A DNA stretch of 32,420 nucleotides from a virus (IMGVR_UViG_3300048573_000453:1-32420), one strand, 5' to 3'. Positions 1,046-17,662 are shown, counted from the first letter of the stretch. Notes: generated by a model not told the origin, from the letters alone. Translations and numbers: made by a program.

Positions 1046-1655
1046 TTAATTTAAGATTTTGGCTTTAGACGCGGTATTGCGAGTTTCGGCATCAAGAAAA
1101 TATTCGATGACATCCCTTTTTGTGCTATCATCTTCACTACTTTTCGTGAAACCAGACATATTGATAGGAACCATTGTGGCTGCAACAACATGCTGCAGAT
1201 CAAAATACAGCTTGAATGAACCACCAGATTCGAAGTCAGAGATACCACGCTCGATACTATCAAGAATTTCAGAAATGGAAGACGCATAAGCAATTACTTG
1301 CTCTGGAGAAGGATGCCCAAGGAAATCAGACAAGCAAGCGCTGCCCGCCTGTTTGTAGCTGTCACCATTCTTAACGACGAACGTTGCATTACGCTTGCGA
1401 TCAATACCACAGTGTTCACAAGTCGAAGGACTGCTAAAACGATAGTGTTCCGGAACTGCTTGGCCGGCAATCGACTTTACGATTGCAGTTGCACCATCAG
1501 CTTCAATCTTACCCACAAAAGACCAACCGTTCAACTTCGGTGCTTCACCTTGAAATGCTACCTCAGTAAAAGACCGAATCGTATCATCTTTTTGCGTCAC
1601 CATCTTAGTGCCAAGCACTTCAACAGTAGGCAGGGGTGTTGAGTTTTGTGTTCAT
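1046..1655 (-). pseudogene. Truncated, frameshifted paralog of the 5219-6394 gene
   Basis: LGTKMVTQKDDTIRSFTEVAFQGEAPKLNGWSFVGKIEADGATAIVKS is near-identical to the full copy. ATG 1655 gives MNTKLN, then an ~23-codon deletion with frameshift. Similarity stops at RN, exactly where the 27-bp repeat begins. Confidence 0.85.
1055..1081 (+). repeat. 27-bp direct repeat, copy 1 (insertion boundary)
   Basis: GATTTTGGCTTTAGACGCGGTATTGCG, identical to 3474-3500. Confidence 0.95.
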
Positions 1656-1661
1656 GTAAGA

Positions 1662-1670
1662 ATTATACCA
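1662..1670 (-). promoter_or_regulatory. Extended -10 promoter, probably leaderless transcript
   Basis: TGGTATAAT-N6-ATG(1655); TTGAGA at 1684-1689 (16-nt spacer). Confidence 0.65.
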
Positions 1671-1732
1671 CGACTTTCAGCAATCTCAACCCCAGGGAAC
1701 ATTTTTAAACTCATACAATCCAGACTTCAGTT

Positions 1733-2566
1733 CTAAGCTACGCAGTTACTTAGATAGTATTCGTTATTTTCTTTTTCAATCTTTGAGACAGTTTTATAAA
1801 GGTCCCCAAAAAAATGAATTTTAACACTGGCGTTCTTAGAAAGGTTTTCAAAAAGCATATTTGGCTTTCCATTCAAAACCCCACTCAAGCCAAATTTGGT
1901 TTCTGTGGAAATCAAATTATTAATATACTGAAGAAGCCGGCAATCATCGTCACTAGACCAAGTGGTGTTATAACCCGCATTGGTATTGCTATAAGGCGGA
2001 TCAATATAGACAAATGAATTTTCCGGTATTTGGATTTTTTCATAAGAACCGGAAAAGAATTTAACATTATCTGGAACATACCGTTCTTTGTAAATTCGTA
2101 AGGTTTCTGCTTTAGAAATATTAAAACCCCTTTTACCCCAGGTCTGGTTAAACTTCCCAGTTTTATTGAAGCGCATAAAACCACTATTACATGACCAAAT
2201 TAATGCCAACAATTTGCATGGGGTTGGAGAAGTATTAAAACTGTCTCGCAGCCTATTATAGTTTTCTTGGCTATCTATCGTTGCTGTGGATAGGGCAATC
2301 GACCTATTAATGAACTCTTCATCTAACAAATTTTGATGAATTTGTATCAACATTTCTAGAGAATCATTTGCGATAATTTGTGGATAAATGTTTGACACAT
2401 TCATGTACACGCTTCCGCCACCCGCAAATAAATCCAAAAACGTATCAACGTCTTTTGGAAACAGTGGCAATAATTTATCCAAAAGGTTAAATTTGCTGCC
2501 AATATAATTGATTGGTGATTTAAACATACTTGGCTTAGTGATATAAATCGGCAAATTCACAGACAT
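1733..2566 (-). CDS. dam: N6-adenine DNA methyltransferase (Dam/D12 class)
   Basis: SPINYIGSK N-terminus, motif I DLFAGGGSV, motif IV DPPY; size typical of T4 Dam. Confidence 0.9.
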   Translation of the reverse strand: MSVNLPIYITKPSMFKSPINYIGSKFNLLDKLLPLFPKDVDTFLDLFAGGGSVYMNVSNIYPQIIANDSLEMLIQIHQNLLDEEFINRSIALSTATIDSQENYNRLRDSFNTSPTPCKLLALIWSCNSGFMRFNKTGKFNQTWGKRGFNISKAETLRIYKERYVPDNVKFFSGSYEKIQIPENSFVYIDPPYSNTNAGYNTTWSSDDDCRLLQYINNLISTETKFGLSGVLNGKPNMLFENLSKNASVKIHFFGDLYKTVSKIEKENNEYYLSNCVA

Positions 2567-3039
2567 TTACTGCCGCCTTCCCAATCTGTTACGCATAAAA
2601 AATTCCCAAATGCTGTAAAGACCCTATACATTCCTTTTGTGTCATCATCAGTAAAGAAACATCCCTGGCTTTGGCGGTTATAAAATTTTGATTCTAGTAG
2701 TTGAGCTTCTTCCGTATCCAGGAATTTTAATATTTTGCCATGTTCGCGAGCACATTCAATTTCGCCAGCGACACCCACAGATGAATCCCAACCAGAAAAC
2801 TTTAGAACCCAAACTTCATCGCAGCGTGCGATAATTGTTCTACGTGTCTTACCCCAATCACCCCATGTAGCAGTCACGCTCATGAATTTCAGAATTTGGT
2901 AATCCTGGACCATCGGTGCAATAAAAGTATGTTCTGGAAATTTAGTGTGAAGATCCGCAAGCATCTTTAGAAACTTGGGTGTTAATTGGCCATTTTCAAC
3001 TGTGCCGGCAGTAGGAATAGCGGTGAAAATGAGTGACAT
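2557..3039 (-). CDS. DUF1937-like / nucleoside 2-deoxyribosyltransferase-fold protein
   Basis: ..IIARCDEVWVLKFSGWDSSVGVAGEIECAREHGKILKFL matches this family pattern. Start reassigned to ATG 3039 (MSLIFTAIP) because AGGAG lies 6 nt upstream and two TATAAT promoters lie in the ORF-track extension (to 3198). Confidence 0.65.
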   Translation of the reverse strand: MSLIFTAIPTAGTVENGQLTPKFLKMLADLHTKFPEHTFIAPMVQDYQILKFMSVTATWGDWGKTRRTIIARCDEVWVLKFSGWDSSVGVAGEIECAREHGKILKFLDTEEAQLLESKFYNRQSQGCFFTDDDTKGMYRVFTAFGNFLCVTDWEGGSKCL

Positions 3040-3067
3040 GTGTTCTCCTGTAAAAGTGTTTAAAGAA

Positions 3068-3076
3068 ATTATACCG
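3068..3076 (-). promoter_or_regulatory. Putative early promoter -10
   Basis: CGGTATAAT upstream of the AGGAG RBS and ATG 3039. Confidence 0.55.
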
Positions 3077-3121
3077 CAAGCTTGGCCGTCTGGGTTCACT
3101 AACTTTTGTCCAGCTAGCATA

Positions 3122-3130
3122 ATTATACTA
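3122..3130 (-). promoter_or_regulatory. Second tandem -10 element
   Basis: TAGTATAAT 54 nt upstream of the 3068 element. Confidence 0.45.
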
Positions 3131-3173
3131 TCAACCAATTTGGGGACCCCATGAAACTGCTTTGCAGTTACTC

Positions 3174-3479
3174 GAAAATAAGCAACAATTTCCATCAACT
3201 AAAGAAGAAGTGGAGTGGAAATTAAAGAGGTTAGATGTAAAAAATACACCATCAACAGTGATTTGACAGTTGATGTAGATGGTGTTGTGAATCTTTCCTT
3301 GAAAAAGTTGTCATTCTTTTCCTGTAAAATTTGGGGTAGTTAGTGGAGACTTTGTCTGTTCTCAAAACCGATTGACCACTTTGCGTGGAGCACCCAGGGA
3401 AGTAGGTGGAAGTTTTTATTGCCATCGAAACCTATTGAAATCTCTTCTCGGTGCACCTAGAGAAGTAGGTGGGGATTTT
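3174..3479 (+). pseudogene. Remnant of LRR-array family gene
   Basis: Reads KQQFPSTKEEVE..LKRLDVK/YTINSDLTVDVDGVVNLS../PVKFGVVSGDFVCSQNRLTTLRGAPREVGGSFYCHRNLLKSLLGAPREVGGDF; frameshifts at A6 (3239-3244) and T4 (3317-3320); cut at the 27-bp repeat; no start codon. Confidence 0.85.
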
Positions 3480-3853
3480 GGCTTTAGACGCGGTATTGCG
3501 TTCCCACACATTTCTACAAAGTCATACTTTTCATGCATTGAACTTAATTCTGATTCCCACGCACGCAATATTTGAACCGATTCTCCACTAGTTTCATTCA
3601 TGAAAAAGACGGCCTTTTCGCCCCTATGAATTTCAAATTCCTTTATTTTGTTCTCAATTGATGCCCGCACTGAATTTTCACGTTCCTGTTTGGCTTCGGG
3701 CGCATCCATTTCATACAAGAAATCTAATTTCTTGTCGTATTGTTGCAATCTAATAGCGACTAATTCGTCAACAGTTGCGCCCTGTAGGTAGTCGCCATTA
3801 CAGGGTTCTGCTTCTTCAAGCTGTTCTTTAAAATATATTGCTGGATTTGTCAT
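3416..3853 (-). CDS. Hypothetical protein with C-terminus altered by the insertion
   Basis: 145-aa ORF directly downstream of nadV; last ~19 aa (PPTSLGAPRRD..) are antisense LRR sequence. Confidence 0.7.
   Translation of the reverse strand: MTNPAIYFKEQLEEAEPCNGDYLQGATVDELVAIRLQQYDKKLDFLYEMDAPEAKQERENSVRASIENKIKEFEIHRGEKAVFFMNETSGESVQILRAWESELSSMHEKYDFVEMCGNAIPRLKPKSPPTSLGAPRRDFNRFRWQ
3474..3500 (+). repeat. 27-bp direct repeat, copy 2 (insertion boundary)
   Basis: Identical to 1055-1081. Confidence 0.95.
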
Positions 3854-3864
3854 ATTTTGATGTT

Positions 3865-5184
3865 TTATAATTTCTGCACGTAGAATTTTGCTCGGTTGCT
3901 GATTACCTGCAAAGTAACATCCACAAGGAGTTTCCCGTTCTCATAGAAGGTTACCATTTCAGGAGAATCGAGGCGACCACCTTTTGACTTCTTACCGGGA
4001 TCAGTGATTGGATCTTTTACGGTATCTACCCAGACCCCATTGATCAAAACCGCAGAAGTTTTCTGAGCAAAGGAGTAGGTATCGCGATTTACTTTCTGCA
4101 ACAACCCACCGCCAGATCCATAGATAACACACTCAGGGGCAAAGCCTGCATCGTTTACCTTCTGCGCCAAAATTGCTAGAGTTGTTGAATCAATACCATC
4201 ACCCTGAATAACTGAAACATTGTTCAGGACATGCTTGCCCTTTGAGTTTACCGTAGTTCCAAATGCAGCCGCAAGTTTTCGGAGAATCTCGGGAACAATT
4301 TCCATCATGTCGCCACTGTCTGGACGGCACACCCATTTTGCCCCAGATGCAACGATACGATCTTTGAACTTGGTGCAAAGCAGTTCAACTTCGCGCATGA
4401 TATCGTAGCCATCCATCACCACTGAAACAATTGCGCCCGGCTTTGCATATGCATCAAGAATTCGATTGAAATATGCCTCTTGGTTATCTTTACCATAGGA
4501 ACACTGGAGAGAATGTTCCGTGGCGCAAACTGAGTAACCAGCCATATCACATGAATAATATTTTCGTGCTGCTTCAAGAGCAACCACATCATCAGTACCC
4601 ATGAAATAAACCAAGTGTGAAAGTCCGCCAATCTCAGCAGTTTCTTTTGAAGAAACCCCACGACTCCCAAATGAGTGCAGTGAAAATGGCAACATATCGG
4701 GATTATCTGATGCATGGTTATAGAACCATTCAAGCTGCTTATAGTTCTCTCGATCGCGAGATGCGATAGTTGTCGGATACCAGATGCCGCGTTGCAGCGA
4801 GGTTTCGATATAAGATGCGAGCCAGAACACACGGGAGTCAGTGCACTCAACAGTCACAAATGGGGTACCAGATGCAATCGGCACGCCTTCAGGCAAGCCT
4901 CGGATTTTGATAGGCAGATACCCTGCATGCTCTTCCAAAATATATTCCCAATCTTGGCGATTGAAAGGCACACCGTGTTTGCCGGCAATATCTGCTGCCT
5001 CATCAATGTCCGCTTGTGTAATTGGCACCAGCAAATTCTTCTTAATCCACATTTGCAGACCGAACGGGACAATAGTCTGACCCTTTGCTCGTGCTTCGAT
5101 ATAGGAAAACATCCCAGAAGTTCCTTCTGGGTATAAAGCAAAGTGCGAGAATTTATATGAATCGGTATCTGTAATAATTGACAT
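3865..5184 (-). CDS. nadV: Nicotinamide phosphoribosyltransferase (Nampt)
   Basis: DTDSYKFSH, LHSFGSRG, ATEHS, RPDSGD, IQGDG, GSGGGLLQKVNRDT, KDPITDPGKKSKGG motifs of the NAMPT family. Confidence 0.95.
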   Translation of the reverse strand: MSIITDTDSYKFSHFALYPEGTSGMFSYIEARAKGQTIVPFGLQMWIKKNLLVPITQADIDEAADIAGKHGVPFNRQDWEYILEEHAGYLPIKIRGLPEGVPIASGTPFVTVECTDSRVFWLASYIETSLQRGIWYPTTIASRDRENYKQLEWFYNHASDNPDMLPFSLHSFGSRGVSSKETAEIGGLSHLVYFMGTDDVVALEAARKYYSCDMAGYSVCATEHSLQCSYGKDNQEAYFNRILDAYAKPGAIVSVVMDGYDIMREVELLCTKFKDRIVASGAKWVCRPDSGDMMEIVPEILRKLAAAFGTTVNSKGKHVLNNVSVIQGDGIDSTTLAILAQKVNDAGFAPECVIYGSGGGLLQKVNRDTYSFAQKTSAVLINGVWVDTVKDPITDPGKKSKGGRLDSPEMVTFYENGKLLVDVTLQVISNRAKFYVQKL

Positions 5185-7052: not shown

Positions 7053-7886
7053 ATGAAATTAAAACAGTTGTTTGAATCAGTAACTAAACAAGACGTCGAA
7101 TCTATCCTTAAAAAATACGGAATTGAGAACTACACCATCAATGATGACTTGTCAGTAGATGTAGATGGTGATGTGTTCTTAAATGACCAGAACCTAAGTT
7201 CGATTCCAGTTAATTTTGGTAAGGTAAGCGGGGATTTTATCTGTTCTTCCAACCAATTAAAAACTTTAGAAGGCGCTCCAAGAGAAATCGGGGGGAAATT
7301 TGCCTGCTCTAACAACAAATTAACTTCTTTGCAAGGTGCACCTAGAGAAGTTGGTGGAGATTTTAATTGCTCTTACAACCGATTAACATCTTTACAAGGC
7401 GCACCAAGAGAAGTCGGCGGGCATTTTTATTGCTATCACAACAAATTAACTTCTCTGCAAGGTGCACCTAGAGAAGTCGGCGGGCATTTTTGGTGCTTTG
7501 CTAATCAATTAACATCTTTAGAAGGTGCACCTAGAGAAGTCGGCGGGCATTTTTGCTGCCGCAGCAACGAATTAACCTCTTTGCAAGGAGGTCCTAGAGA
7601 AGTAGGTAATGGTTTTGACTGTTCTCACAACCAATTAACCTCTTTACAAGGTGCTCCTAGAGAAGTAGGTGGTGTTTTTGATTGCTCTGAAAACCGATTA
7701 GCATCCTTACAAGGTGCACCTAGAGAAGTAGGTGAGGATTTTTTCGGCTCAAATAACCAATTAACCTCTTTACAAGGTGCACCTAGGGAAGTAGGCGGAG
7801 ATTTTAGGTGCCGTTGTAACCCAAATTTGACCTCTCTCGACGGAATCGGTAATGTCGCCGGGGAAATTAGAAGCGATCTATCATGA
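7053..7886 (+). CDS. LRR-like repeat protein 1 (10 x 21-aa units)
   Basis: MKLKQLFES leader, YTINDDLSVDVDGDV cap, repeats GGxFxCxxNxLTSLQGAPREV, C-cap LTSLDGIGNVAG. Confidence 0.9.
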   Translation: MKLKQLFESVTKQDVESILKKYGIENYTINDDLSVDVDGDVFLNDQNLSSIPVNFGKVSGDFICSSNQLKTLEGAPREIGGKFACSNNKLTSLQGAPREVGGDFNCSYNRLTSLQGAPREVGGHFYCYHNKLTSLQGAPREVGGHFWCFANQLTSLEGAPREVGGHFCCRSNELTSLQGGPREVGNGFDCSHNQLTSLQGAPREVGGVFDCSENRLASLQGAPREVGEDFFGSNNQLTSLQGAPREVGGDFRCRCNPNLTSLDGIGNVAGEIRSDLS

Positions 7887-8656
7887 AATTAAAACAATTA
7901 TTTGAATCAGTAACTTCTAAACAAGATGTGGAAACTATCTTAAAGAAGTATAAAATAACGAACTATACAATTAACGACGACTTGTCAGTTGACGTAGATG
8001 GTGATGTGTTCTTAAATGACCAGAACCTGAGTTCAATTCCTGTCAATTTCGGGAAGGTAAGCGGGGATTTTAATTGTTCTTACAGTCAATTAACTTCTTT
8101 AAAAGGGGTCCCTAGAGAAGTTGATGGTAATTTTAATTGTTATAGCAACCAATTAACTTCTTTGCAAGGTGCACCTAGAGAAGTCAGCGGGAGTTTTTAT
8201 TGCGGTAGCAATCATTTGTCCTCTTTGCAAGGTGCACCTAGAGAAGTTGGTGGGGATTTTTGGTGCTATAGCAGCCAATTAACCTCTTTGCAAGGAGGTC
8301 CTAAAGAAGTAGGTGGGGATTATGACTGCCATGACAACCAATTAACCTCTTTAAAAGGTGCACCTAGAGAAGTAGGTGAGAATTTTGATTGCTCTGAAAA
8401 CAAATTGACAACTTTAGAAGGTGCACCAAAAGAAGTCGGCGTGCATTTTTATTGCTATAACAACCAATTAACTTCCTTAAAAGGTGCACCTAGGGAAGTA
8501 GGCGGAGATTTTAGGTGCTCTACCAACAAATTAACTTCCCTACAGGGTGCTCCTAGAGAAGTCGGTGGAAATTTTTACTGCCGCAACAATGCGAATTTGA
8601 CCTCACTTGACGGGGTCGGCAATGTTGTCGGGTTCACTCTGAGCGATATATCATGA
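7883..8656 (+). CDS. LRR-like repeat protein 2 (9 units)
   Basis: Same architecture; ATGA overlap with previous gene. Confidence 0.9.
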   Translation: MKLKQLFESVTSKQDVETILKKYKITNYTINDDLSVDVDGDVFLNDQNLSSIPVNFGKVSGDFNCSYSQLTSLKGVPREVDGNFNCYSNQLTSLQGAPREVSGSFYCGSNHLSSLQGAPREVGGDFWCYSSQLTSLQGGPKEVGGDYDCHDNQLTSLKGAPREVGENFDCSENKLTTLEGAPKEVGVHFYCYNNQLTSLKGAPREVGGDFRCSTNKLTSLQGAPREVGGNFYCRNNANLTSLDGVGNVVGFTLSDIS

Positions 8657-9426
8657 AATTAAAACAGCTATTTGAATCAGTAACTAAACAAGAAGTAGAA
8701 TCCATCCTTAAAAAATACGGGATTAAGAGCTATGTCATTAATGACGACTTGTCAGTAGATGTTGATGGAGATGTGGATCTAAGTAATGAGAAGCTAAGTT
8801 CGATTCCCGTGAATTTCGGGAAAGTTAGTGGAAATTTTCGGTGCTTTGGTAACCAATTAACCTCCTTACAAGGTGCACCTAAAGAAGTCGGTGGCAGTTT
8901 TGATTGCTCTGACAACAAATTGACAACTTTAGAAGGTGCACCAAGAGAAGTCGGTGAAAATTTTTACTGCTATCACAATAAATTAACTTTTCTGCAAGGC
9001 GCTCCTGGGGAAGTTGGTGGAAATTTTTATTGCTTTCGCAACAAATTAACCTCTTTACAAGGTGCACCTAGAGAAGTTGGTAGGGTTTTTGATTGCTCTG
9101 AAAACCAATTAACTTCATTGCAAGGTGCACCGAGAGGAGCAGGTGAGGATTTTTACTGCCATTTGAACCAATTAACCTCTTTACGGGGTTCTCCTAGAGA
9201 AGTGGGTGGGGATTTTTACTGCAATGATAACCCAAATCTGATTTCCTTACAGGGTTCTCCTAGAGAAGTTGGCGGGAGTTTTTATTGCCATAATAGCCAA
9301 TTAACCTCTTTGCAAGGAGGTCCTAGAGAAGTAGGTAAGAATTTTAATTGTATTGATAACCCAAATTTGACCTCACTTGACGGAATCGGCAATGTTGCTG
9401 GGCATATTTTTAGCGACCTATCATGA
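8653..9426 (+). CDS. LRR-like repeat protein 3 (9 units, one internal cap-like unit)
   Basis: Same architecture; internal NDNPNLISL unit is 1 aa longer. Confidence 0.9.
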   Translation: MKLKQLFESVTKQEVESILKKYGIKSYVINDDLSVDVDGDVDLSNEKLSSIPVNFGKVSGNFRCFGNQLTSLQGAPKEVGGSFDCSDNKLTTLEGAPREVGENFYCYHNKLTFLQGAPGEVGGNFYCFRNKLTSLQGAPREVGRVFDCSENQLTSLQGAPRGAGEDFYCHLNQLTSLRGSPREVGGDFYCNDNPNLISLQGSPREVGGSFYCHNSQLTSLQGGPREVGKNFNCIDNPNLTSLDGIGNVAGHIFSDLS

Positions 9427-10256
9427 AATTAAAACAGCTATTTGAATCAACTTCTAAACAAGAAGTGGAATCTATCCTTAAAAAATACGGGATTGACAAC
9501 TACGTAATTAACGACGACTTGTCAATAGATGTCGATGGTGATGTGGATTTAAGTTATAGTGGGTTAAGTTCAATCCCTGTCAATTTTGGGAAAGTCGGTG
9601 GCTATTTTGATTGCTTTGATAACCAATTAACATCCCTACAAGGTGCACCTAGAGAAGTTGGTGGGGATTTTGCTTGTTATAACAACAGATTGACAACTTT
9701 AGAAGGTGCGCCTAGGGAAGTCAACGGGGATTTTGACTGCTCTTACAACCAATTAACCTCTTTGCGAGGCGGGCCTAGAGAAGTCAACGGGCGTTTTTGG
9801 TGCTATAGCAACCAATTGTCCTCTTTACAAGGCGCTCCAAGAGAAGTAGGTGGGGATTTTGATTGCTTTGACAATCAATTGTCATCCCTACAAGGTGCAC
9901 CTAGAGAAGTTGGTGGGGATTTTAATTGCTCTGATAACCAATTAACATCCTTACAGGGCGCACCTAGAGAAGTTGGTGGAGATTTTGATTGTAATCGCAA
10001 CAAATTAGTCTCCTTACAAGGTGCTCCGAGAGAAGTTGGCGGGTATTTTAGTTGCGCCTACAACCAATTAACTTCTTTGCAAGGTGCTCCTAGAGAAGTT
10101 GGCGGGTATTTTAACTGCTTTGCCAATCAATTGACCTCCTTACAAGGTGCTCCGAGAGAAGTTGGTGGGAACTTTGTATGCTCTAATAACTCAAATTTGG
10201 CTTCTCTTGACGGAATCGGCAATGTTGCCGGCAGAATTGAAAGCAACCTATCATGA
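9423..10256 (+). CDS. LRR-like repeat protein 4 (10 units)
   Basis: Same architecture; ATGA overlap. Confidence 0.9.
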   Translation: MKLKQLFESTSKQEVESILKKYGIDNYVINDDLSIDVDGDVDLSYSGLSSIPVNFGKVGGYFDCFDNQLTSLQGAPREVGGDFACYNNRLTTLEGAPREVNGDFDCSYNQLTSLRGGPREVNGRFWCYSNQLSSLQGAPREVGGDFDCFDNQLSSLQGAPREVGGDFNCSDNQLTSLQGAPREVGGDFDCNRNKLVSLQGAPREVGGYFSCAYNQLTSLQGAPREVGGYFNCFANQLTSLQGAPREVGGNFVCSNNSNLASLDGIGNVAGRIESNLS

Positions 10257-10960
10257 AATTAAAACAATTATTTGAATCAACTTCTAAACAAGAAGTAAAA
10301 ACAATCTTAAAGAAGTATAAAATAACGAACTATACAATTAACGATGACTTGTTAGTCGATGTCGATGGGAATGTGTTCTTAAATGACAAGAACCTGAGTT
10401 CGATTCCAGTTAATTTTGGGAAGGTAAGCGGCGATTTTAATTGCTCTTTGAACCAATTAACTTCTTTAAAAGGGGTTCCTAGAGAAGTTGATGGCAATTT
10501 TAATTGCGCTTACAGCCAATTAACTTCCCTACAAGGCGCGCCTAAAGAAGTTGGTGGAGATTTTATTTGCTCTCATAACCAATTAACTTCTTTACAAGGT
10601 TCACCTAGGGAAGTAGGTGGAAATTTTTATTGCTCTCATAACCAATTAACATCCTTACAAGGCGCACCTAGAGAAGTCGGTGGAAATTTTTATTGCTATC
10701 GCAACAAATTAACCTCTTTGCAAGGTGCATCTAGGGAAGTGGGTGGGAGTTTTGATTGCTCTGAAAACCAATTAACATCCTTACAAGGTGCACCGAGAGA
10801 AGTAGGCGGGGCTTTTAATTGCTCTGGCAACCAATTAACCTCTTTAGAAGGTGCACCTAGAGAAGTAGGTGGGGATTTTTATTGCCGTTTTAACCCAAAA
10901 TTGACTTCTCTTGACGGAATCGGCAATGTTGCTGGGCACATTTTTAGCGATATATCATGA
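10253..10960 (+). CDS. LRR-like repeat protein 5 (8 units)
   Basis: Same architecture; 235 aa = 277 minus 2 units. Confidence 0.9.
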   Translation: MKLKQLFESTSKQEVKTILKKYKITNYTINDDLLVDVDGNVFLNDKNLSSIPVNFGKVSGDFNCSLNQLTSLKGVPREVDGNFNCAYSQLTSLQGAPKEVGGDFICSHNQLTSLQGSPREVGGNFYCSHNQLTSLQGAPREVGGNFYCYRNKLTSLQGASREVGGSFDCSENQLTSLQGAPREVGGAFNCSGNQLTSLEGAPREVGGDFYCRFNPKLTSLDGIGNVAGHIFSDIS

Positions 10961-11792
10961 AATTAAAACAATTATTTGAATCAACTTCTAAACAAGAAGT
11001 AGAATCCATTTTAAAGAAATATAAAATAACAAACTATACAATTAACGATGACTTGTCTGTAGATGTGGATGGAGATGTGGATCTAAGTCATAAGATGTTA
11101 AGTTCAATTCCTGTCAATTTCGGGAAAGTTAGCGGGGGGTTTTGATTGCTATAACAACCAATTAACTTCTTTAAAAGGTGCACCGAGAGAAGTCGGCGGG
11201 AATTTTTATTGTTCTGAAAACAAATTAGCCTCTTTACAAGGGCACCTAGGGAAGTAGGTGGGGATTTTTATTGCAATAACAACCAATTAACCTCTTTAAA
11301 AGGTGCGCCTAGAGAAGTTATTAAAAGTTTTGGATGCGCTCACAACAGATTAACAACTTTAGAAGGTTGCCCTAAGGAAGTTAATGGACATTTTTTTGAT
11401 TGCTCTTATAACAAATTAACTTCTTTAAAAGGAGCGCCTAACGAAGCTTTTGGAAATTTTGATTGCAAAGATAACCAATTAACTTCCTTACAAGGTGCAC
11501 CTAGGGAAGTAGGCGGGTATTTTGATTGTAAAGATAACCAATTAACTTCTTTAAAAGGTGCACCTAGGGAAGTAGGCGGGTATTTTAAATGTCATAACAA
11601 CCAATTAACCTCTTTACAAGGAGCTCCTAGGGAAGTTGGTGGGCATTTTTTTTGCACTTACAACCAATTAACTTCTTTACAAGGTGCACCTAGAGAAGTC
11701 GGCGGGAATTTTATTGCTGTAACAATCCGATGCTGAAAATGCTTGACGGAATCGGCAATGTTGCCGGGGAAATTGAAAGCGACCTATCGTGA
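10957..11792 (+). pseudogene. LRR-like repeat protein 6 (10 units), three frameshifts
   Basis: Extra G in G6 at 11134-11139 gives TGA 11143-11145; -1 at CAAGGGCACCT (~11237-11247); missing T in AATTTTATTGC (~11707-11717); C-cap ..GEIESDLS* ends 11792. Confidence 0.9.
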
Positions 11793-12553
11793 AATTAAAA
11801 CAGTTATTCGAATCAGTGTCTAAACAGGATGTAGAATCCATCCTAAAGAAATACGGGATTAAAAATTACGCAATTAACGATGACTTGTCAGTCGATGTTG
11901 ATGGGGATGTGGATTTGCGTCATAGGCAATTAGAAGAAATCCCAGTCAATTTCAGCAAAGTCAGCGGGGATTTTTATTGCCAGTTTAGCAAATTAACTTC
12001 TTTGCAAGGTGCACCTAGAAAAGTCGGAGGGGATTTTATCTGCTCTTCCAACCAATTAAAAACTTTAGAAGGTGCACCTAGAGAAGTGGGCGGGGATTTT
12101 ATCTGCTCTTCCAACAAATTGGCCTCTCTAAAAGGCGCTCCTAAAGAAGTCGATGGAGATTTTTCATGCGCTGATAACCAATTAACTTCTTTACAAGGTG
12201 CTCCTAGAGAAGTCAACGGGCGTTTTTGGTGCTATAGCAACAAATTGACCTCTTTGCAAGAAGGTCCTAGAGAAGTAGGTGGGGAGTTTAACTGCTCTGC
12301 CAACAAATTGACCTCTTTGCAAGGAGGTCCTAGAGAAGTAGGCGGAGACTTTGAGTGCTTTGCAAATCTATTAGTATCTTTACAGGGGGCACCAAGAGCA
12401 GTTGGCGGACATTTCGTGTGCGCCGATAATCCACATTTGATTTCCTTGCAAGGCGCGCCTAGAGAAGTCGGTGGGGACTTTGTCTGCTTTGATACCCCAA
12501 ATTTGACTTCTCTTGACGGAATCGGCAATGTTTCCGGAAGAATTAAGCGTTAG
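11789..12553 (+). CDS. LRR-like repeat protein 7 (9 units)
   Basis: GTG start overlapping the previous TGA; C-terminus 3 aa shorter (GRIKR*). Confidence 0.9.
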   Translation: MKLKQLFESVSKQDVESILKKYGIKNYAINDDLSVDVDGDVDLRHRQLEEIPVNFSKVSGDFYCQFSKLTSLQGAPRKVGGDFICSSNQLKTLEGAPREVGGDFICSSNKLASLKGAPKEVDGDFSCADNQLTSLQGAPREVNGRFWCYSNKLTSLQEGPREVGGEFNCSANKLTSLQGGPREVGGDFECFANLLVSLQGAPRAVGGHFVCADNPHLISLQGAPREVGGDFVCFDTPNLTSLDGIGNVSGRIKR

Positions 12554-12581
12554 ATAAAAAGCAAGCGGGCCTAAAAGCTTA

Positions 12582-13565
12582 TCACGAACGAGTCAAAAAT
12601 GCAGGCATTGGTGATACGCCAGTCATAACTGAAATAATATGCAAATGGTCGTCATACAATTCTAAGGAATTCAGAACCGTAGTCAGAGGAAACCATTCGC
12701 ACTTTGCTGCATCATCTGCTCCATTAGCACGAGGTAGACTTCCATCTGGATTCGGGCTCACTCGAATGTATACGGCAAGTGTATTCCGTGGAATTCCAAA
12801 TGAGCGAGCGGGCGAATCAAATATTTGTGTTTTTACAATGCTTCCGCGAAGAATCTTCTCGGGCACTCGAACATTGGTTTCCTCTTTAAGTTCGCGAATG
12901 GCGCAATCAAGGAATGTCTCATTGCCATTTTTAAATCCACCAGGAAGTGCCCATTGACCTGCCCCAGGCGCCCGTGCTCGTTGGATCAATAGAACATGGC
13001 CCTGACACTCAAGCACGGTATCTCCGCAGTTGAAATTCAGGGTTTCTGGGTATGGATATGAAGCAAAGGTCTTGGTTTCTTTTTGATAGTAATCCCAATC
13101 CTGCTTGACCGATATAGGCATTGCTGGGTCATTTGATACAAACATTTCGTTGCGGATTTGAGTCGCATTGATATCAATTTCGGCTGTGATATCAGAAAAT
13201 TTCCAATCAGGAAACCATGACAAGTAGAGATTTCCATCTTTGTAGTGACCAAACAAAATTGGCTTTTCATCTTCTACAAAATGTTCTACTGTGGCCCGAA
13301 CATCTGTGATCCACTGGCTATCGCTATAAGGGTAGTCATTGAGCGGAACGATCTCAACGTTGGTGATACCGTGAGAATGCAGAATCATTGCGATGTATGC
13401 TTTTCGCTCTATGTATGACCAGGGGTTTTTGATGCTTCTACATTGATTTGCAGAGCCAACAAGAAGAATAAGCGTTTCTACTTGTGATGCAGCAACTGTG
13501 ATTGCATGGATATGACCATCATGCAGTGGCTGGAAACGACCGATTAGGAAACCGATTTTCGACAT
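12582..13565 (-). CDS. nadM: Bifunctional NMN adenylyltransferase / ADP-ribose pyrophosphatase (NadM-Nudix; KVP40 NatV-like)
   Basis: IGRFQPLHDGH (HxGH), VGSAN..KNPWS, ATQIR, Nudix box ALPGGFKNGNETFLDCAIRELKEET, GADDA. Confidence 0.95.
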   Translation of the reverse strand: MSKIGFLIGRFQPLHDGHIHAITVAASQVETLILLVGSANQCRSIKNPWSYIERKAYIAMILHSHGITNVEIVPLNDYPYSDSQWITDVRATVEHFVEDEKPILFGHYKDGNLYLSWFPDWKFSDITAEIDINATQIRNEMFVSNDPAMPISVKQDWDYYQKETKTFASYPYPETLNFNCGDTVLECQGHVLLIQRARAPGAGQWALPGGFKNGNETFLDCAIRELKEETNVRVPEKILRGSIVKTQIFDSPARSFGIPRNTLAVYIRVSPNPDGSLPRANGADDAAKCEWFPLTTVLNSLELYDDHLHIISVMTGVSPMPAFLTRS

Positions 13566-13600
13566 TTTTAAGCTCCTTTAGAATGTCTTTGTTATTTAAT

Positions 13601-13975
13601 TTATTTTTTCAACGATTTGAAAAAGTTTGCTGGTGCTGCTTTGAGCATTGCTTTGAAAACTGCTCTCGCTGGAAGTTCATATTGTTCCTCCGAAGGCCAA
13701 CCTGCAACTGTAGGATTTTCTGATGTCCGGCCACACCGAAGGGTCAATTGACTGTCAAGTGCTTCTTCGCCAATCATCACCATCTCAATAGATGGCTCAG
13801 GGACAACAAGGGCCTGTTCTGAACCAGTAAAGTTCATTTCACTGACATAGAAGCACTTGCGTTCGCCGTCTTGATACTCAATGCAAATACCATCTTCATC
13901 TTTCAAGATGTCAGTTGCATGTTCACATGGGAGAAAATCTTTACCTACACCAATAATTTTAGCAACAGTTTTCAT
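13601..13975 (-). CDS. Hypothetical protein
   Basis: 124-aa ORF downstream of the promoter at 14004, upstream of nadM. Confidence 0.65.
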   Translation of the reverse strand: MKTVAKIIGVGKDFLPCEHATDILKDEDGICIEYQDGERKCFYVSEMNFTGSEQALVVPEPSIEMVMIGEEALDSQLTLRCGRTSENPTVAGWPSEEQYELPARAVFKAMLKAAPANFFKSLKK

Positions 13976-14003
13976 GATTTTTCTTTCAGTGGCATTTTGA
14001 TTG

Positions 14004-14012
14004 ATTATACCA
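14004..14012 (-). promoter_or_regulatory. Extended -10 promoter for the 13975-nadM unit
   Basis: TGGTATAAT; TTCACT at 17-nt spacing; short uORF MPLKEKS* overlaps ATG 13975. Confidence 0.6.
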
Positions 14013-14092
14013 TCAAAATAGCCTCAAGTGAATTGAAGCATGAAGTTTTAGCTTTCTTTAGTAGAAAGAACACGTGCGGGTTGCCCCCAGTT

Positions 14093-15052
14093 TTACGATA
14101 GGTCGCCTTCAATTCGACCAGCTACATTGCCTATTCCGCCAAGTGAGGCCAAATTTGGGTTATCAAGGCAAATAAAATCTCCGCCTACTTCCTTAGGAGC
14201 GCCCTGCAAAGAGGTTAATTCGTTGCTGCGGCAGAAAAAATGCCCACCCACTTCTCTAGGCGCGCCTTCTAGGGATGTTAATTGGTTGTAAGAGCAATTG
14301 AAGCTCCCACCAACTTCCCTAGGCGCACCTTCTAAAGATGTTAATTGGTTTTCAGAGCAGTAAAACTCAAAATAAACTTTTCTAGGAGAACCTTTTAGCG
14401 AAGTTAATTTATTTTTACCACAACTAAAAGTCCCACCGACGTCTCTAGGCGCACCTTCTAGGGATGCCAATTTATTACTAAAGCAATAAAAATCCCCACC
14501 TACTTCCCTAGGTGCTCCTTGTAAAGAGGTTAATTTGTTTTCAGAACAATAAAAATTTCCACCGACTTCTCTAGGTGCACCTTTTAAAAAAGTTAATTGG
14601 TTTTGAGAACAATTAAAAGCCCCAAATACTTCCCTAGGCGCACCTTCTAGGGATGCCAATTTATTACTAAAGCAATAAAAATTCCCACCGACATCTCTAG
14701 GTGCACCTCCTAGAGATGTTAATTGGTTGAAAGAGCAATTAAAATCCCCGCCTACTTCTCTAGGTGCACCTTGTAGGGATGTTAATTGGTTGCCAGAGCA
14801 ATTAAAAGCCCCGCCTACTTCCCTAGGCACGCCTTTTAAAAAAGTTAATTTATTAAAAGCGCACTTAAAGTCTCCACTGACCTTCCCAAAATTGACAGGA
14901 ATTGAACTCAGGTTCTCGTCATTTAAGACCACATCCCCATCAACATCAACCGACAGGTCATCATTGATAACGTAGTTCTCTATCTTATATTTCTTTAAGA
15001 TGGACTCTACACCTTGTTTAGAAGTTGATTCAAATAAATGTTTTAATTTCAT
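14093..15052 (-). CDS. LRR-like repeat protein 8 (12 units)
   Basis: MKLKHLFES leader; 319 aa = 277 plus 2 units. Confidence 0.9.
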   Translation of the reverse strand: MKLKHLFESTSKQGVESILKKYKIENYVINDDLSVDVDGDVVLNDENLSSIPVNFGKVSGDFKCAFNKLTFLKGVPREVGGAFNCSGNQLTSLQGAPREVGGDFNCSFNQLTSLGGAPRDVGGNFYCFSNKLASLEGAPREVFGAFNCSQNQLTFLKGAPREVGGNFYCSENKLTSLQGAPREVGGDFYCFSNKLASLEGAPRDVGGTFSCGKNKLTSLKGSPRKVYFEFYCSENQLTSLEGAPREVGGSFNCSYNQLTSLEGAPREVGGHFFCRSNELTSLQGAPKEVGGDFICLDNPNLASLGGIGNVAGRIEGDLS

Positions 15053-15819
15053 GATAGATCGCTTCTAATTCGTCCGGTTATATTGCCGATTCCGTCAAGG
15101 GATTGTAAATTTGGGTTTTTAGCGCAATCAAAATGCCCGCCAACTTCTCTAGGAGCACCTTCTAAAGATGTTAATTGGTTGTAAGAGCAGTAAAAACCCC
15201 CACCGACTTCTCTAGGAGCACCTTCTAAAGATGTTAATTGGTTGTCGGTACAATAAAAATTTCCATCGACTTCCCTAGGTGCGCCTTGTAAAGAAGTTAA
15301 TTGGTTTTGAGAACAATTAAAATTCCCGCCAACTTCTCTCGGCCCGCCCTTCAAAGAAGTCAATTTGTTGTTATAACAATTAAAACTACCGCCGACTTCT
15401 CTAGGTGCACCTTGCAAAGAAGTTAATTTATTGTCAGAACAATAAAAATTCCCGCCGACTTCTCTAGGTGCACCTTGTAAAGAGACCAATTGGTTACGAG
15501 AGCAATCAAAACGCCCGCTAATTTCCCTAGGCGCACCTTGTAAAGAAGCAAATTTATTAAAAGAGCAATTAAAATTACCGCCAACTTCCCCAGGCGCACC
15601 TTGTAAAGATGTTAATTTATTGTCAGAACACTTAAAGTCTCCACTGACTTTCCCAAAATTAATAGGAATTGAACTCAGGTTCTCGTCATTTAAATTCACA
15701 TCTCCATCGACATCTACAGACAAGTCATCATTGATAACGTAGTTCTCGATCTTATATTTCTTTAAGATAGATTCTACATCTTCTTTAGAAGTAGATTCGA
15801 ATAATTGCCTTAATTTCAT
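15049..15819 (-). CDS. LRR-like repeat protein 9 (9 units)
   Basis: Start reassigned to ATG 15819 (MKLRQLFES), 1 nt after the upstream stop. Confidence 0.9.
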   Translation of the reverse strand: MKLRQLFESTSKEDVESILKKYKIENYVINDDLSVDVDGDVNLNDENLSSIPINFGKVSGDFKCSDNKLTSLQGAPGEVGGNFNCSFNKFASLQGAPREISGRFDCSRNQLVSLQGAPREVGGNFYCSDNKLTSLQGAPREVGGSFNCYNNKLTSLKGGPREVGGNFNCSQNQLTSLQGAPREVDGNFYCTDNQLTSLEGAPREVGGGFYCSYNQLTSLEGAPREVGGHFDCAKNPNLQSLDGIGNITGRIRSDLS

Positions 15820-15820
15820 T

Positions 15821-17662
15821 TTACTGACCGCGCAAAGATCTATCAATTATGGGTTTTTTATTATCTGTTGATGGCCATGAATAAATGTACTCGCCTGCAT
15901 GATCTTTAACAATTAGGAAGGTATAGTTTGCAAAAGTATAAACCTTCATATCTGCTTTATATCCAGGAATACGTTCTTGGAATTCCATTGTTGCGTCAGT
16001 GACTTTAGTTCCAAACTTGACCAAAAACGATGCAACTGAATCGATTTCTTTTTTGGAGTTGGGGCCTCCGCCAATATGAGCAACGACCTGAATGTCTTCA
16101 ATTCGGGTCGTAGTAAAAGGTGAAAACACTTGGCGACCAATCGCGCGGATGCCCTGACTCATATACCCCGGGAGATTGCGAACCATATGCCATTTGGGAT
16201 CTTCTTTGCCAGCAGCTTTCAATGCAGTGTTAATGACCCGTGGCAAATCAGCTGCGGTGGGAATCATGACATCATAGCTAGCATCAATTATGTCTTCGAG
16301 CCCTGATAGATCCATGCCCATAAACAAGAGCAACGATTCCATATCCATGCGAATATTTTTAGTTGCATTTCCTGTGTCAGCAGCCGAAGCAGTGTTAAAC
16401 TTTATAGACCTTTTTGCATCTCCACCAAAAGGCTTGCTTTTTGCAGCTGGTGCATTTTTACCATCAGTGCTTGAGAATTTAATGTCATCTAGCTTGGCAC
16501 GAAACGTGTCTTTCGGGATTGTACGCTTTGGACCAGGGCCATCATCGGCTTCCGCCATAAATTTTAAAAATTTGGTTCGATAAGATTCTTTAACGGCCGC
16601 AGTTTCTAAGGGTTTGACAGAGTAATCCGAATTCAAATCTTTGCTTGTTAAGCCCATTAATTTGTAGTCACCTGAACCATAGCCACCGCCCTGAAATTTG
16701 AGGTTTTTGCTAACAATGATTGTTCTTAGTACAGAGTGAAACTCGGGCTCAATGGCGCCATTGTGTTTACCTTTTAGTTGAGCTATAGTTTTTAGGTTTT
16801 TTGTCAACTCGAAAGTTGCCCCTGGCAAACCTTCTGGGCCCTGAAGCGACCAAATTACCAAACTTCCATTTGTTACGTCTTTTGCATAAGTTCCTACACA
16901 GTGGGCCATGACTTCGCCCTCAGTTTTAACAAACTCTGCAGACAGAGCCTTTACTAATCGGAAACCAGGCGGCAATGGTTGCTCCATATGAACAATTTCG
17001 AAATCTTCGTCCCGCTTTAGCAATTTAAACTTCTGCTTCGCTATGTCTTTTGATAACTTTGCAGATTTGCGGCTTAGATACGCGTGATACGCCCGTGCAT
17101 TACCAATAGCAACAACTGGTGAAACCTTTGTGAAGTCTTTTAAGAAATACAGGTCGGGTAAGATTTCAACGTTGCGGTCTTCTTGATTTATCGCAACAGC
17201 ATTCAAATAGTCTATTAGCTCATCAGTTACTTTTTGTAAGATGCGCGGCATGCGAATTTTGCGGCCACCGGCAAAAATGTGTGCTGTATCCGGGCTTTTG
17301 CGAATGTATTCTGGAAACATTGCTAAAAAGTTTCCGCGCTCAATATGCGGGAACTCTTCTTCCAGGTCATCAATCACCGCATTAAATTCAGGGTACAACA
17401 TGCTTTTAAATTTTTCTTCACTGGCGTATGCACCACCATGAGAGTCGTACCCGACTGCTTCGTTTTTGATCCAGTTCTTAAAGTTTGAATTAAACCATGT
17501 TCTGACTTTGGCTTGATTAGAACGCGGCTCAACACTCTTCTTCATAAACGTGTTAAAAATTTCGTTAAATGACGCAAAGCGTTCAATTACATCGCCAGAT
17601 GGGTCGGTGAGTTCGATTTCGACGCTACCGCCATTTGCAAAATTGGCTTCGAATAAATGCAT
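15821..17662 (-). CDS. 613-aa protein with PcfJ-like domain; putative head-packaged protein
   Basis: KTEGEVMAHCVGTY..IWSL..ATFEL..IAQLKGKHN is the PcfJ-like pattern; N-terminal MHLFEA; internal KFLKFMAEA; upstream TAAATA. Confidence 0.65.
   Translation of the reverse strand: MHLFEANFANGGSVEIELTDPSGDVIERFASFNEIFNTFMKKSVEPRSNQAKVRTWFNSNFKNWIKNEAVGYDSHGGAYASEEKFKSMLYPEFNAVIDDLEEEFPHIERGNFLAMFPEYIRKSPDTAHIFAGGRKIRMPRILQKVTDELIDYLNAVAINQEDRNVEILPDLYFLKDFTKVSPVVAIGNARAYHAYLSRKSAKLSKDIAKQKFKLLKRDEDFEIVHMEQPLPPGFRLVKALSAEFVKTEGEVMAHCVGTYAKDVTNGSLVIWSLQGPEGLPGATFELTKNLKTIAQLKGKHNGAIEPEFHSVLRTIIVSKNLKFQGGGYGSGDYKLMGLTSKDLNSDYSVKPLETAAVKESYRTKFLKFMAEADDGPGPKRTIPKDTFRAKLDDIKFSSTDGKNAPAAKSKPFGGDAKRSIKFNTASAADTGNATKNIRMDMESLLLFMGMDLSGLEDIIDASYDVMIPTAADLPRVINTALKAAGKEDPKWHMVRNLPGYMSQGIRAIGRQVFSPFTTTRIEDIQVVAHIGGGPNSKKEIDSVASFLVKFGTKVTDATMEFQERIPGYKADMKVYTFANYTFLIVKDHAGEYIYSWPSTDNKKPIIDRSLRGQ

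Follow-up and report, generated by a model that had tools for sequence, protein, structure and literature searches.

The analysed window is a stretch of 32,420 nucleotides from a virus (IMGVR_UViG_3300048573_000453), and it contains nine neighbouring LRR genes (g1 to g9) that together comprise 86 units of 63 nt and form two inverted sub-arrays, g1-g7 on the plus strand and g8-g9 on the minus strand (Table 1). They constitute a multigene family of small cysteine-ladder LRR proteins carried by an uncultured jumbo phage. Common to all nine genes are a 56-residue N-terminal domain, the caps and ATGA stop/start overlaps. Each encoded protein has 8-12 repeats of 21 residues between an N-terminal and a C-terminal cap, one unit corresponding to exactly 21 codons. 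Eight of the nine copies are intact ORFs that retain a start codon, the caps and the coupled stop/start overlaps. The sole broken copy is g6, whose frameshifts are also present in three independent assemblies (L110, L111 and L126, identical across g6); in strain contig L126, g2 is in addition frameshifted by a 1-nt indel at position 8538. Every LRR gene product starts with MKL[KR][QH]LF[ED]S, which we take to resemble the T4 leader MKTYQEFIAE. In T4-type internal (capsid-targeted) proteins, which are found in virions, the prohead protease removes an N-terminal targeting sequence by cutting after LxE. A Peptidase_S77 profile search yielded no match here, nor in any control genome. The literature search retrieved no published description of this kind of phage LRR array.

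Table 1. Coordinates of the LRR genes and of the shared tracts in the window.
Feature	Position	Strand	Remarks
Tenth LRR gene, degraded 5' fragment	3151..3480	+	Frameshifts, ~2 units; edge of 2.4-kb strain-specific insertion
g1, LRR gene, 277 aa	7053..7886	+	56-aa N-terminal cap, 9 units, terminal unit and tail; ORF/unit parse
g2, LRR gene, 257 aa	7883..8656	+	9 units; ORF/unit parse
g3, LRR gene, 257 aa	8653..9426	+	9 units; ORF/unit parse
g4, LRR gene, 277 aa	9423..10256	+	10 units; ORF/unit parse; AlphaFold2 model predicts an LRR solenoid
g5, LRR gene, 235 aa	10253..10960	+	8 units; clearest mosaic
g6, LRR pseudogene	10957..11792	+	10 units; three 1-nt frameshifts
g7, LRR gene, 254 aa	11789..12553	+	9 units; GTG start overlapping g6 stop
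g8, LRR gene, 319 aa	14093..15052	-	12 units; strain contig L112 has another mosaic allele
g9, LRR gene, 256 aa	15049..15819	-	9 units (8 in strain contig L137)
228-nt tract of g2	7912..8139	+	N-terminal domain to unit 2; 89.5% identical to g5 10279-10506
34-nt stretch in g2	8151..8184	+	Identical to 7318-7351 in g1
30-nt exact match, cassette CRSNELTSL	7556..7585; 14205..14234	+; -	g1 unit 6; g8 unit 11
39-nt exact match, cassette EVNGRFWCYSN	9774..9812; 12203..12241	+; +	g4 unit 4; g7 unit 5
161-nt tract of g5	10679..10839	+	Identical to h8 of second array; spans codon 3 of unit 5 through codon 14 of unit 7
41-nt exact match, cassette AFNCSGN	10799..10839; 14781..14821	+; -	g5 unit 7; g8 unit 2; also identical in h8 unit 6
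86-nt tract, g6 units 1-2	11156..11241	+	94% identical to g8 14517-14602 (units 5-6)
40-nt direct repeat in g9	15143..15245	-	Copies at 15143-15182 and 15206-15245, constant parts of units 8 and 7; L137 deletion between copies

Pfam LRR_4 matches reached 37.1 bits (g1) and 31.5 bits in profile searches, where the cut-off is 27. Residues F6, C8, N11, L13, L16, G18 and P20 of the unit are conserved at 92-100%, and the F6-x-C8-x-x-N11-x-L13 core (99, 99, 93 and 99% over 132 units) follows the repeat pattern of the LRR superfamily (LxxLxLxxNxL, 20-30 residues). Of the 132 units, 131 carry C8, with a period of 21 residues, which places the proteins among cysteine-ladder LRRs of the InlJ type. Codons 5, 7, 9 and 10 are hypervariable, with an entropy of 2.6-3.5 bits; they encode the four x positions in xFxCxxN, which are situated on the predicted concave binding face, while the remainder of the 63-nt unit stays constant. 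The AlphaFold2 model of g4 (pLDDT 94.2, pTM 0.88) is a curved solenoid that makes one turn in each repeat, with short strands recurring every 21 residues. All 50 hits listed by Foldseek against the PDB were LRR proteins, YopM, IpaH3 and SspH1/2 being the top matches among those listed. Membership of the cysteine-ladder type need not imply common descent with InlJ.

Shared tracts in a repetitive array could reflect faulty assembly. The longest exact repeat in the window array is 49 nt, contigs from other samples (L109, L110, L111, L115, L116, L126, L131 and L138) jointly cover positions 7053-15819 at 100% or near-100% identity, and the array is base-identical in at least seven independent samples. 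Because these independent assemblies match base for base, the window array is not misassembled.

The first-pass annotation had described identical variable cassettes in different LRR genes, and these proved genuine. The EVNGRFWCYSN identity between 9780-9812 and 12209-12241 is exact and extends to 39 nt, the CRSNELTSL string of g1 recurs as its reverse complement in g8, and each of these two nucleotide strings is found only at its two places. DFICSSNQLKTLEGAPRE is located in g1 unit 1 and g7 unit 2, which differ at 8 of 63 nt. AFNCSGNQLTSL is shared by g5 unit 7 and g8 unit 2 (41 nt exact, 4 differences), and VFDCSEN recurs in unit 8 of g1 and unit 5 of g3. The unit indices of shared units differ, and the cassettes thus occupy different places in different genes, as had been noted. 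A chance model was obtained by shuffling codon columns among the 77 internal window units. Twelve unit pairs had six or fewer differences, compared with 0.57 expected (maximum of 5 in 300 shuffles), and four cross-gene pairs had nucleotide-identical codons 5-10, compared with 0.29 expected (none of 1000 shuffles reached four). Three of these four had been reported in the annotation; the fourth joins g6 unit 2 to g8 unit 6, which differ at 3 sites, fewer than any other unit pair in the window. Differences inside units were mildly clustered (12.8% of close pairs at p<0.05); taken singly, the annotated pairs gave p = 0.03, 0.026 and 0.037, values that are nominal only as 234 pairs were tested. 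The in-window cassettes would not by themselves prove conversion, because PHI within the 63-column unit alignment gave no signal (p = 0.64 and 0.99) and the AU tests described below have low power.

Comparison of the paralogs within the window provides moderate evidence of recombination. The PHI test on the unambiguously alignable 5' part, which consists of the N-terminal domain and unit 1, gave p = 0.003 for the window alone, 0.004 for the second array and 0.005 for all genes together. AU tests of N-terminal versus C-terminal trees had little power: the (g2,g5) grouping was not rejected by the C-terminal data (p = 0.43), and only (g3,g5) was rejected, by the N-terminal data (p = 0.012). Similarity flanking close unit pairs falls to background within two units. 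The composite nature of g5 is the most evident, with a 5' end like g2 and g6, a g3-like unit 5, a g8-like unit 7 and the tract identical to h8; its significant matches lie in g2, g3, g4 and g8 at non-collinear positions, and its similarity to g2 drops to background beyond unit 2. In a triplet test of g5 against g2 and h8, informative sites were distributed 41:11 (g2:h8) in the 5' part and 8:61 in the 3' part, a value reached by none of 20000 permutations. For the in-window triplet of g5 against g2 and g3, the register was picked after viewing the data and the p value is therefore inflated.

The gene h8 belongs to a second LRR array (h genes), which always co-occurs with the window array. The 161-nt tract identical in g5 and h8 is located within complete genes on both sides (full-length h8 was recovered in two assemblies, L133 and L143), both of its ends fall in constant segments, and its flanks are 16-28% diverged. 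The hypergeometric chance of such an undifferentiated tract is ~3e-8 when calculated from the upstream repeat flank alone, and 2e-9 for the longer version in L016. Together with the PHI result and the non-collinear unit matches, this tract is of the mosaic kind found in families with unequal crossing-over or gene conversion. Whole-gene and unit duplication without any intergenic exchange, with the shared cassettes as ancestral units that diverged less, would agree with the conserved order of the YCYHNK, YC[YF]RNK and DCSEN blocks in g3, g5 and h8, with 22 concordant versus 6 discordant orderings, with AU tests that do not reject congruence for most clades and with the non-significant unit-level PHI. 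This reading is nevertheless already disfavoured, and we regard it as very improbable: it does not account for the 5' PHI signal, for a difference-free stretch within diverged flanks, for unit 7 (of 8) of g5 matching unit 2 (of 12) of g8 next to neighbours at 25 differences, or for the different gene that strain contig L112 carries at one position of an otherwise identical backbone.

Near-identical strain contigs settle that recombination takes place through the constant part of the unit, since it is directly visible in them. In L137, exactly one unit (63 nt) of g9 is missing at a site internal to the contig, and the deletion junction falls inside the 40-nt constant-part repeat. The h5 gene of L018 likewise lacks one unit (63 nt), with its junction in a 24-nt constant stretch and the rest of the 6.9 kb free of mismatches; h8 of L134 lacks two units (126 nt), ~100 nt from the contig end and possibly by an assembler walk. 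Closely related haplotypes thus differ in unit number, the junctions falling in repeated sequence, and in L112 a whole allele is replaced. This contig is 99.7-100% identical to the window over NadM and orf124, but only ~72% identical for the gene at the g8 position, which has a four-unit block in common with h8 at the protein level and a g7-like end. Beyond the array, L112 also carries dispersed substitutions and an indel of 1 nt, and it is therefore a distinct strain. Together with candidate hybrids at contig ends, in L018 (an h6::h7 join) and in L120, which passes from g2 to g1-like units 3-4 at 8151..8184 and is ambiguous, the block replacement in L112 indicates exchange between genes. The contig-end recombinants (L016, L117, L120, L018 h6::h7 and L134) could be assembler walks across shared repeats. 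Extending this explanation to all shared tracts and variant structures, as short-read chimeras from repetitive mixed populations, would fit with the three second-array contigs (L016, L018 and L020) and several window-type contigs that end within arrays, with the presence of both array types in the same samples, and with the reciprocal joins across the 161-nt tract, where L016 runs on as g5 for 77 nt and L117 as h8 for ~71 nt exactly at the contig ends. Such an artefact is extremely unlikely, however, given that exact repeats within the window array do not exceed 49 nt, that this array recurs in independent assemblies, that the events in L137, L018 (h5), L112, L126 and L133/L143 are all contig-internal, that L112 differs outside the array, and that the 9 nt shared at the h6::h7 junction are too short for a k-mer join.

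The annotation had attributed the diversity to recombination through the constant part of each unit rather than to whole-gene duplication. The first half of this proposal is borne out by L137, L018 (h5), the ends of the g5/h8 tract and L112. The second half does not hold, as the N-terminal domain, caps and ATGA overlaps common to the nine genes indicate that the array itself arose by gene duplication. Nor is recombination the main origin of the cassette diversity: ~18 of 63 sites differ in most unit pairs, and four-fold sites are near saturation. Because synonymous sites are saturated in most unit pairs and the four hypervariable codons evolve at 0.7-1.0 times the synonymous rate, it is point substitution that creates the cassette variety, and recombination reassorts the cassettes and alters unit number.

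Given the observed unit anatomy, mosaic tracts, unit indels between strains and allele replacement, we consider it likely that the locus as a whole is a multigene LRR family whose units are reshuffled by misaligned homologous pairing. Units of any gene have 24-49 nt of exact identity in the constant part, and because of this shared sequence and the unit length of exactly 21 codons, misaligned pairing during phage replication or recombination would give in-frame products. These may be genes with units gained or lost, hybrid genes, or paralogs between which one to several units have passed, including between the window array and the second array. Out-of-register events and small indels would generate pseudogenes, such as g6 and, in one strain, g2. 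The outcome would be a strain-specific, shuffled repertoire of binding surfaces; the LRR proteins may bind host or rival-phage proteins, and variation in their units is probably under selection.

We infer that the agent is ordinary homologous recombination and not a programmed system, because neither a reverse transcriptase on the 96-kb contig nor a silent-cassette layout turned up. A dedicated cassette mechanism or a diversity-generating retroelement with g6 as silent donor would match the modular units with constant flanks, the NNT pattern at hypervariable codons 5 and 9, and a stable pseudogene that holds one unit of the window's closest pair, but is hardly credible here: the reverse transcriptase profile (PF00078) is absent from the 96-kb contig (~27% of the genome; controls matched), the 572 differences between close units are led by transitions (AG 196, CT 138) and not confined to adenines (61% involve A), the base-identical array in independent samples speaks against frequent switching, and a hairpin in the constant part of the unit shows no covariation. 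Lamprey VLR assembly, Borrelia vls and Neisseria pilS likewise obtain binding diversity when cassettes the size of a repeat are copied by way of short stretches of common sequence. They rely on a single site of expression with silent donors, and on machinery that is either dedicated or induced. Cassette switching of this type needs one expression locus fed by silent, incomplete, promoterless donors, whereas eight of the nine phage copies are complete ORFs with starts and caps; all copies have the form of expressed genes, and the events resemble general recombination that occurs rarely.

In fold, the best structural matches are the type III effector LRRs YopM, IpaH and SspH (Foldseek E 3.5e-5 to 4e-4), short bacterial LRRs of 20-22 residues that bind host proteins. 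The resemblance is one of fold and not of family: identity is 16-25%, and the phage proteins have no LxxLPxLPxx segment, E3 ligase domain or secretion signal. The 'Bacterial' LRR class is defined by LxxLPxLPxx, and the units here, with a single proline (P20) in xGAPR and no LPxLP, fall outside it. IRREKO proteins, described as almost exclusively bacterial, also have 21-residue repeats with a cysteine subtype LxxLxCxxNxLxxL, and the short strands modelled in both repeat halves are as predicted for this class (Matsushima et al. 2010, PMC2946307). Its second half LxxLDLxx(N/L/Q)xx is nevertheless replaced by L-T-S-L-x-G-A-P-R-E-V, without LDLxx(N/L), and G or V takes the place of L at the first core position; the units are thus not assigned to it. 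InlJ of Listeria monocytogenes (PDB 3bz5) shares the 21-residue repeat and an LxxLxLxxN core in which a leucine is replaced by cysteine to form a stacked ladder. Its Foldseek probability is 1.00, but it appears at rank 39 with a TM-score of ~0.48 and 18% identity, its variable half is unlike the xGAPREVGG found here, and the phage proteins are multicopy without signal peptide or wall anchor.

A close parallel in evolution is provided by tandem LRR paralogs in plant NLR/R-gene clusters, for example the RPP8 family (PMC6771003) and the coffee SH3 and potato R2 loci (PMC3113787, PMC4619397). There, too, variation is focused on solvent-exposed xLxLxxN positions, point mutation acts together with intergenic exchange and unequal crossing-over, and gene and repeat number vary between haplotypes. 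The phage proteins differ in being bare LRRs of ~250 residues with caps and without NB-ARC or signalling domain, their 21-residue repeats are uniform and keep an exact 63-nt register, and exchange may also cross two arrays or two phages. With 63-base units gained, lost and moved between genes, the phage array appears to evolve much like plant resistance-gene clusters.

The window covers the opening 32.4 kb of an IMG/VR contig of 96.4 kb whose CheckV completeness is 27%, which implies a jumbo phage source of roughly 350 kb. Nine paralogous LRR genes (g1-g9) were located within 7053-15819, and all follow one protein plan: a conserved 56-residue N-terminal domain, 8-12 units, a terminal unit of the NPNLTSLDGIG type and an 11-residue tail. 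The nine genes hold 86 units of 21 residues (63 nt) each. All start with MKL[KR][QH]LF[ED]S, which we take to resemble the T4 capsid-targeting leader with its LxE cleavage site. An unrelated ORF, at 67978-68385 of the 96.4-kb contig, starts with MKTQELFEG. Assemblies from three further samples carry g6 without a base changed, which makes it a fixed pseudogene and not a sequencing error; even so, its unit 2 takes part in the closest unit match of the window. The Nampt and NMNAT/Nudix pair that flanks the plus-strand array here is likewise found in KVP40-like vibriophages, and together with the PcfJ-like and ART-PolyVal genes it looks like an accessory or counter-defence neighbourhood. Two strain contigs (L115 and L118) lack a 2.4-kb segment (1082-3475), 1081 being joined to 3476 through a 27-bp repeat (1055-1081 and 3474-3500); this segment is an insertion polymorphism with a piece of an LRR locus (3151-3480) aboard.

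Features of the LRR locus and its surroundings in the window
Feature	Position	Strand	Remarks
Partial copy of the 5219-6400 gene	1095-1615		74% identical; inside segment 1082-3475
Dam-type methyltransferase	1733-2566		Inside segment 1082-3475
Weak DUF1937-like ORF	2557-3198		Inside segment 1082-3475
Degraded tenth LRR copy	3151-3480		Broken fragment
Nampt (NAPRTase + NAMPT_N)	3865-5184		With NMNAT/Nudix, flanks the plus-strand array
g1-g7	7053-12553	+	Each stop overlaps the next start (ATGA; GTGA for g7)
g6 pseudogene	10957-11792		Three 1-nt frameshifts, two in G or T runs
NadM/Nudix NMN adenylyltransferase (NMNAT/Nudix, bifunctional)	12582-13565		Point where both LRR groups converge
orf124 (124-aa ORF)			Beside NadM, between the converging LRR groups
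g9 and g8	15819-14093	-	LRR genes
PcfJ-like gene	15821-17662		
ART-PolyVal (ADP-ribosyltransferase)	26075-26851		

The unit consensus is E-V-G-G-x-F-x-C-x-x-N-x-L-T-S-L-x-G-A-P-R, in which F6, C8, N11, L13, L16, G18 and P20 are conserved at 92-100%. Codons 5, 7, 9 and 10 are hypervariable, with an amino-acid entropy of 2.6-3.5 bits and a richness in D, N, H, S, Y and W. If the unit is read as xLxLxxN, the motif and established LRR structure would place these four positions on the solvent-facing concave sheet. An AlphaFold2 model of g4, built on 15 paralogs, reached a pLDDT of 94.2 with short strands every 21 residues; the top Foldseek matches in the PDB were LRR proteins throughout (YopM, IpaH3, SspH1/2), and InlJ, with its cysteine ladder, followed at rank 39. 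Pfam LRR_4 scored above its cut-off for LRR proteins of the array. In structural kind, the phage proteins are InlJ-like cysteine-ladder LRR proteins with repeats of 21 residues; the variable half of their repeat fits neither the IRREKO nor the 'Bacterial' LRR class consensus. The family is widespread in metagenomes (>7000 protein-search matches), and rows of 8-12 such genes are present in many IMG/VR contigs.

The first-pass annotation had noted that different LRR genes share identical cassettes, the variable parts of the unit, and had attributed the diversity to recombination or gene conversion through the constant part of the unit rather than to whole-gene duplication. The two exact matches lie where it had placed them, as do the three shared peptides, and the first match (9780-9812 and 12209-12241) extends to 39 nt. 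That cassettes occupy different unit indices was also borne out, for example by unit 7/8 of g5 versus unit 2/12 of g8. The null model shuffled codon columns among the 77 internal units. Unit pairs with six or fewer differences numbered 12 versus 0.57 expected, and different-gene pairs with nucleotide-identical codons 5-10 numbered four versus 0.29 expected, a count reached in 0 of 1000 shuffles. Three of these four pairs had been named in the annotation; for its pairs, clustering of differences gave only p = 0.03-0.04 before correction for 234 tests. The mean difference between units is 18 of 63 sites, with four-fold sites close to saturation, which makes most units old and marks the few close pairs as recent copies. 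Next to close pairs, neighbouring units stand at 14-16 differences and units two away at background. The clearest mosaic is g5, with close matches to g2, g3, g4 and g8 at non-collinear positions. A weak three-unit (189-nt) higher-order periodicity in g8 (lag-3 mean of 15.5 differences versus about 18 at other lags) is driven by one pair.

PHI was applied to the N-terminal domain and unit 1, the unambiguously alignable part, and returned p = 0.003 for the window, 0.004 for a second array (genes h1-h8) and 0.005 for both. AU tests of N-terminal versus C-terminal trees were too weak to reveal incongruence, the terminal segments being short. On window data alone, recombination among the paralogs is likely, as the annotation proposed, but exchange of parts of units lacks support, PHI on the 63-column unit alignment having found no signal within the unit (p = 0.64). 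Misassembly, which the annotation had named as a possible source of shared tracts, does not explain the array: its longest exact repeat is 49 nt and independent contigs agree. Contigs assembled independently from other samples reproduce 7053-15819, including all three g6 frameshifts, with no differences beyond those given below.

Exact-protein look-ups yielded numerous contigs of this phage, assembled from a set of JGI samples, and pattern scans of IMG/VR and metagenomes returned the group of contig L016, which carries the second array, as the only close relative. No near relatives at the DNA level were present in the GenBank phage collection, where the best protein matches reached 57% (Vibrio phage VB_VaC_SRILMA) and 41% (735-kb uncultured phages). 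Most window-type strain contigs were 100% identical to the window, and the exceptions noted sit in the arrays. In L137, g9 is shorter by exactly one unit, with the junction inside a 40-nt direct repeat (15143-15182 and 15206-15245) in the constant part of the unit; in L126, a 1-nt indel at 8538 truncates g2. Contig L112 is 99.7-100% identical to the window in NadM and orf124 and has a different gene, about 72% identical, at the g8 position. Units AFNCSGN, FYCYHNK, VFDCSYNELM and NFVCSHN of this gene match, at the protein level, a four-unit block of h8, while the two final units are similar to the end of g7. Contig L110, from a second sample, is identical to the window through 5.5 kb; its final 70 nt, within the terminal unit of g8 (14128-14169), contain 6 differences and possibly belong to an L112-type allele at the g8 position.

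The eight genes of the second array adjoin a T4-type large terminase on L016. Over 6.9 kb, L018 was without mismatch to L016 except for an 11-nt intergenic indel, one substitution and a one-unit deletion in h5, whose junction falls within a 24-nt constant stretch. L018 further contains, near its contig end, an h6::h7 hybrid gene whose two parts meet at 9 shared bases, and L134 has an h8 shorter by two units close to the contig end. The 11-nt indel, upstream of the terminase (L016 about 3869), separates the otherwise identical L016, L018 and L020. The terminase itself (L016 3873-5864; 663 aa) has a weak mid-protein match to intein splicing (27 bits, under its Pfam cut-off, 35.8) and may thus contain an intein. 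A further 46-nt exact match links unit 3 of g2 (8187-8232; SFYCGSNHLSS) to unit 10 of h8, the cassette lying at a different position.

The last 238 nt of L016 match g5 exactly. However, the complete h8 (298 aa; L133 and again L143) continues differently, and the match was therefore revised to 161 nt (window 10679-10839), after which h8 has 62 nt exactly as in unit 2 of g8 and then its own units. For its last 77 nt, L016 follows g5; reciprocally, the window-type L117 has h8 sequence over its last 71 nt or so. As both joins are at contig ends, they are taken to be either assembler walks or rare recombinants, and the 77-nt end of L016 is either a contig-end mis-walk or such a recombinant. In practice, LRR arrays like these are places where assemblies break off and are at times joined wrongly. 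Judged from the contigs, the 161-nt tract is secure, being internal to complete genes on both sides. Differences between g5 and h8 amount to 0 of 161 sites in the tract versus 20 of 126 in the upstream repeats (hypergeometric estimate about 3e-8, calculated by hand) and 36 of 168 in the N-terminal domains. Each end of the tract lies in a constant segment (codon 2-3 of g5 unit 5; codon 14 of g5 unit 7).

Every sample checked (3300046366, -367, 3300047476, 3300046086, 3300046330, 3300046314 and SRR35434495) contained both array types. Because the terminase and all flanks of the second array are missing from the 96-kb contig, that array may lie at a different locus of this genome or in a relative that occurs alongside it. 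Whether one genome or two, the tract is a record of exchange between LRR genes, and at the sequence level the strain contigs capture the loss of units, the replacement of an allele and the transfer of a tract as these occurred.

The favoured mechanism is one in which general homologous recombination and replication slippage would act on identical constant segments of 24-49 nt, the 21-codon register would keep the products in frame, and point substitution at four near-neutral codons would supply new surfaces. Duplication and divergence alone cannot account for the 161-nt tract, the L112 allele or the PHI result. A silent-cassette system is a misfit with nine full genes stable across samples. 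Within the 96-kb contig, where no reverse transcriptase was found, a diversity-generating retroelement can be excluded, and the substitution spectrum is ordinary. The hypervariable codons change at 0.7-1.0 of the four-fold synonymous rate, a ratio that leaves dN/dS above 1 unsupported at these codons. A constant-part hairpin (CACCTA..TAGGTG), picked up through terminator-like matches, is incidental, pairing being at the shuffled expectation (P = 0.62) and third-position partners showing no covariation.

Any function assigned to the LRR proteins is inferred from their fold and neighbourhood (the NAD-salvage genes Nampt and NMNAT-Nudix, PcfJ-like, ART-PolyVal). If their targets are components of host defence, the arrays would amount to a naturally occurring library of compact, stable binders whose variable positions are known, and would also mark phage-host arms races in metagenomes. 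A joint reading, which we consider rather improbable as a whole, is that the LRR genes are a communal binder library at the population level. Units and blocks would pass between the window array and the terminase-side array (in the same roughly 350-kb genome or a co-infecting relative), and strains would hence differ in binding surfaces; the T4-like MKLKQLFE|S leader would direct the proteins into the capsid and, once injected, they would neutralise variable defence proteins of the host, the 63-nt in-register unit being an adaptation that keeps recombinants in frame. No published description of such phage LRR arrays was found in the literature, as far as searched. Immune receptors of plants and animals are the textbook case of clustered LRR genes that combine binding-face substitution with intergenic exchange; here a phage, the attacker in the conflict, carries the same design. 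In mode of evolution, the closest match is the plant R-gene cluster (PMC6771003, PMC3113787, PMC4619397).
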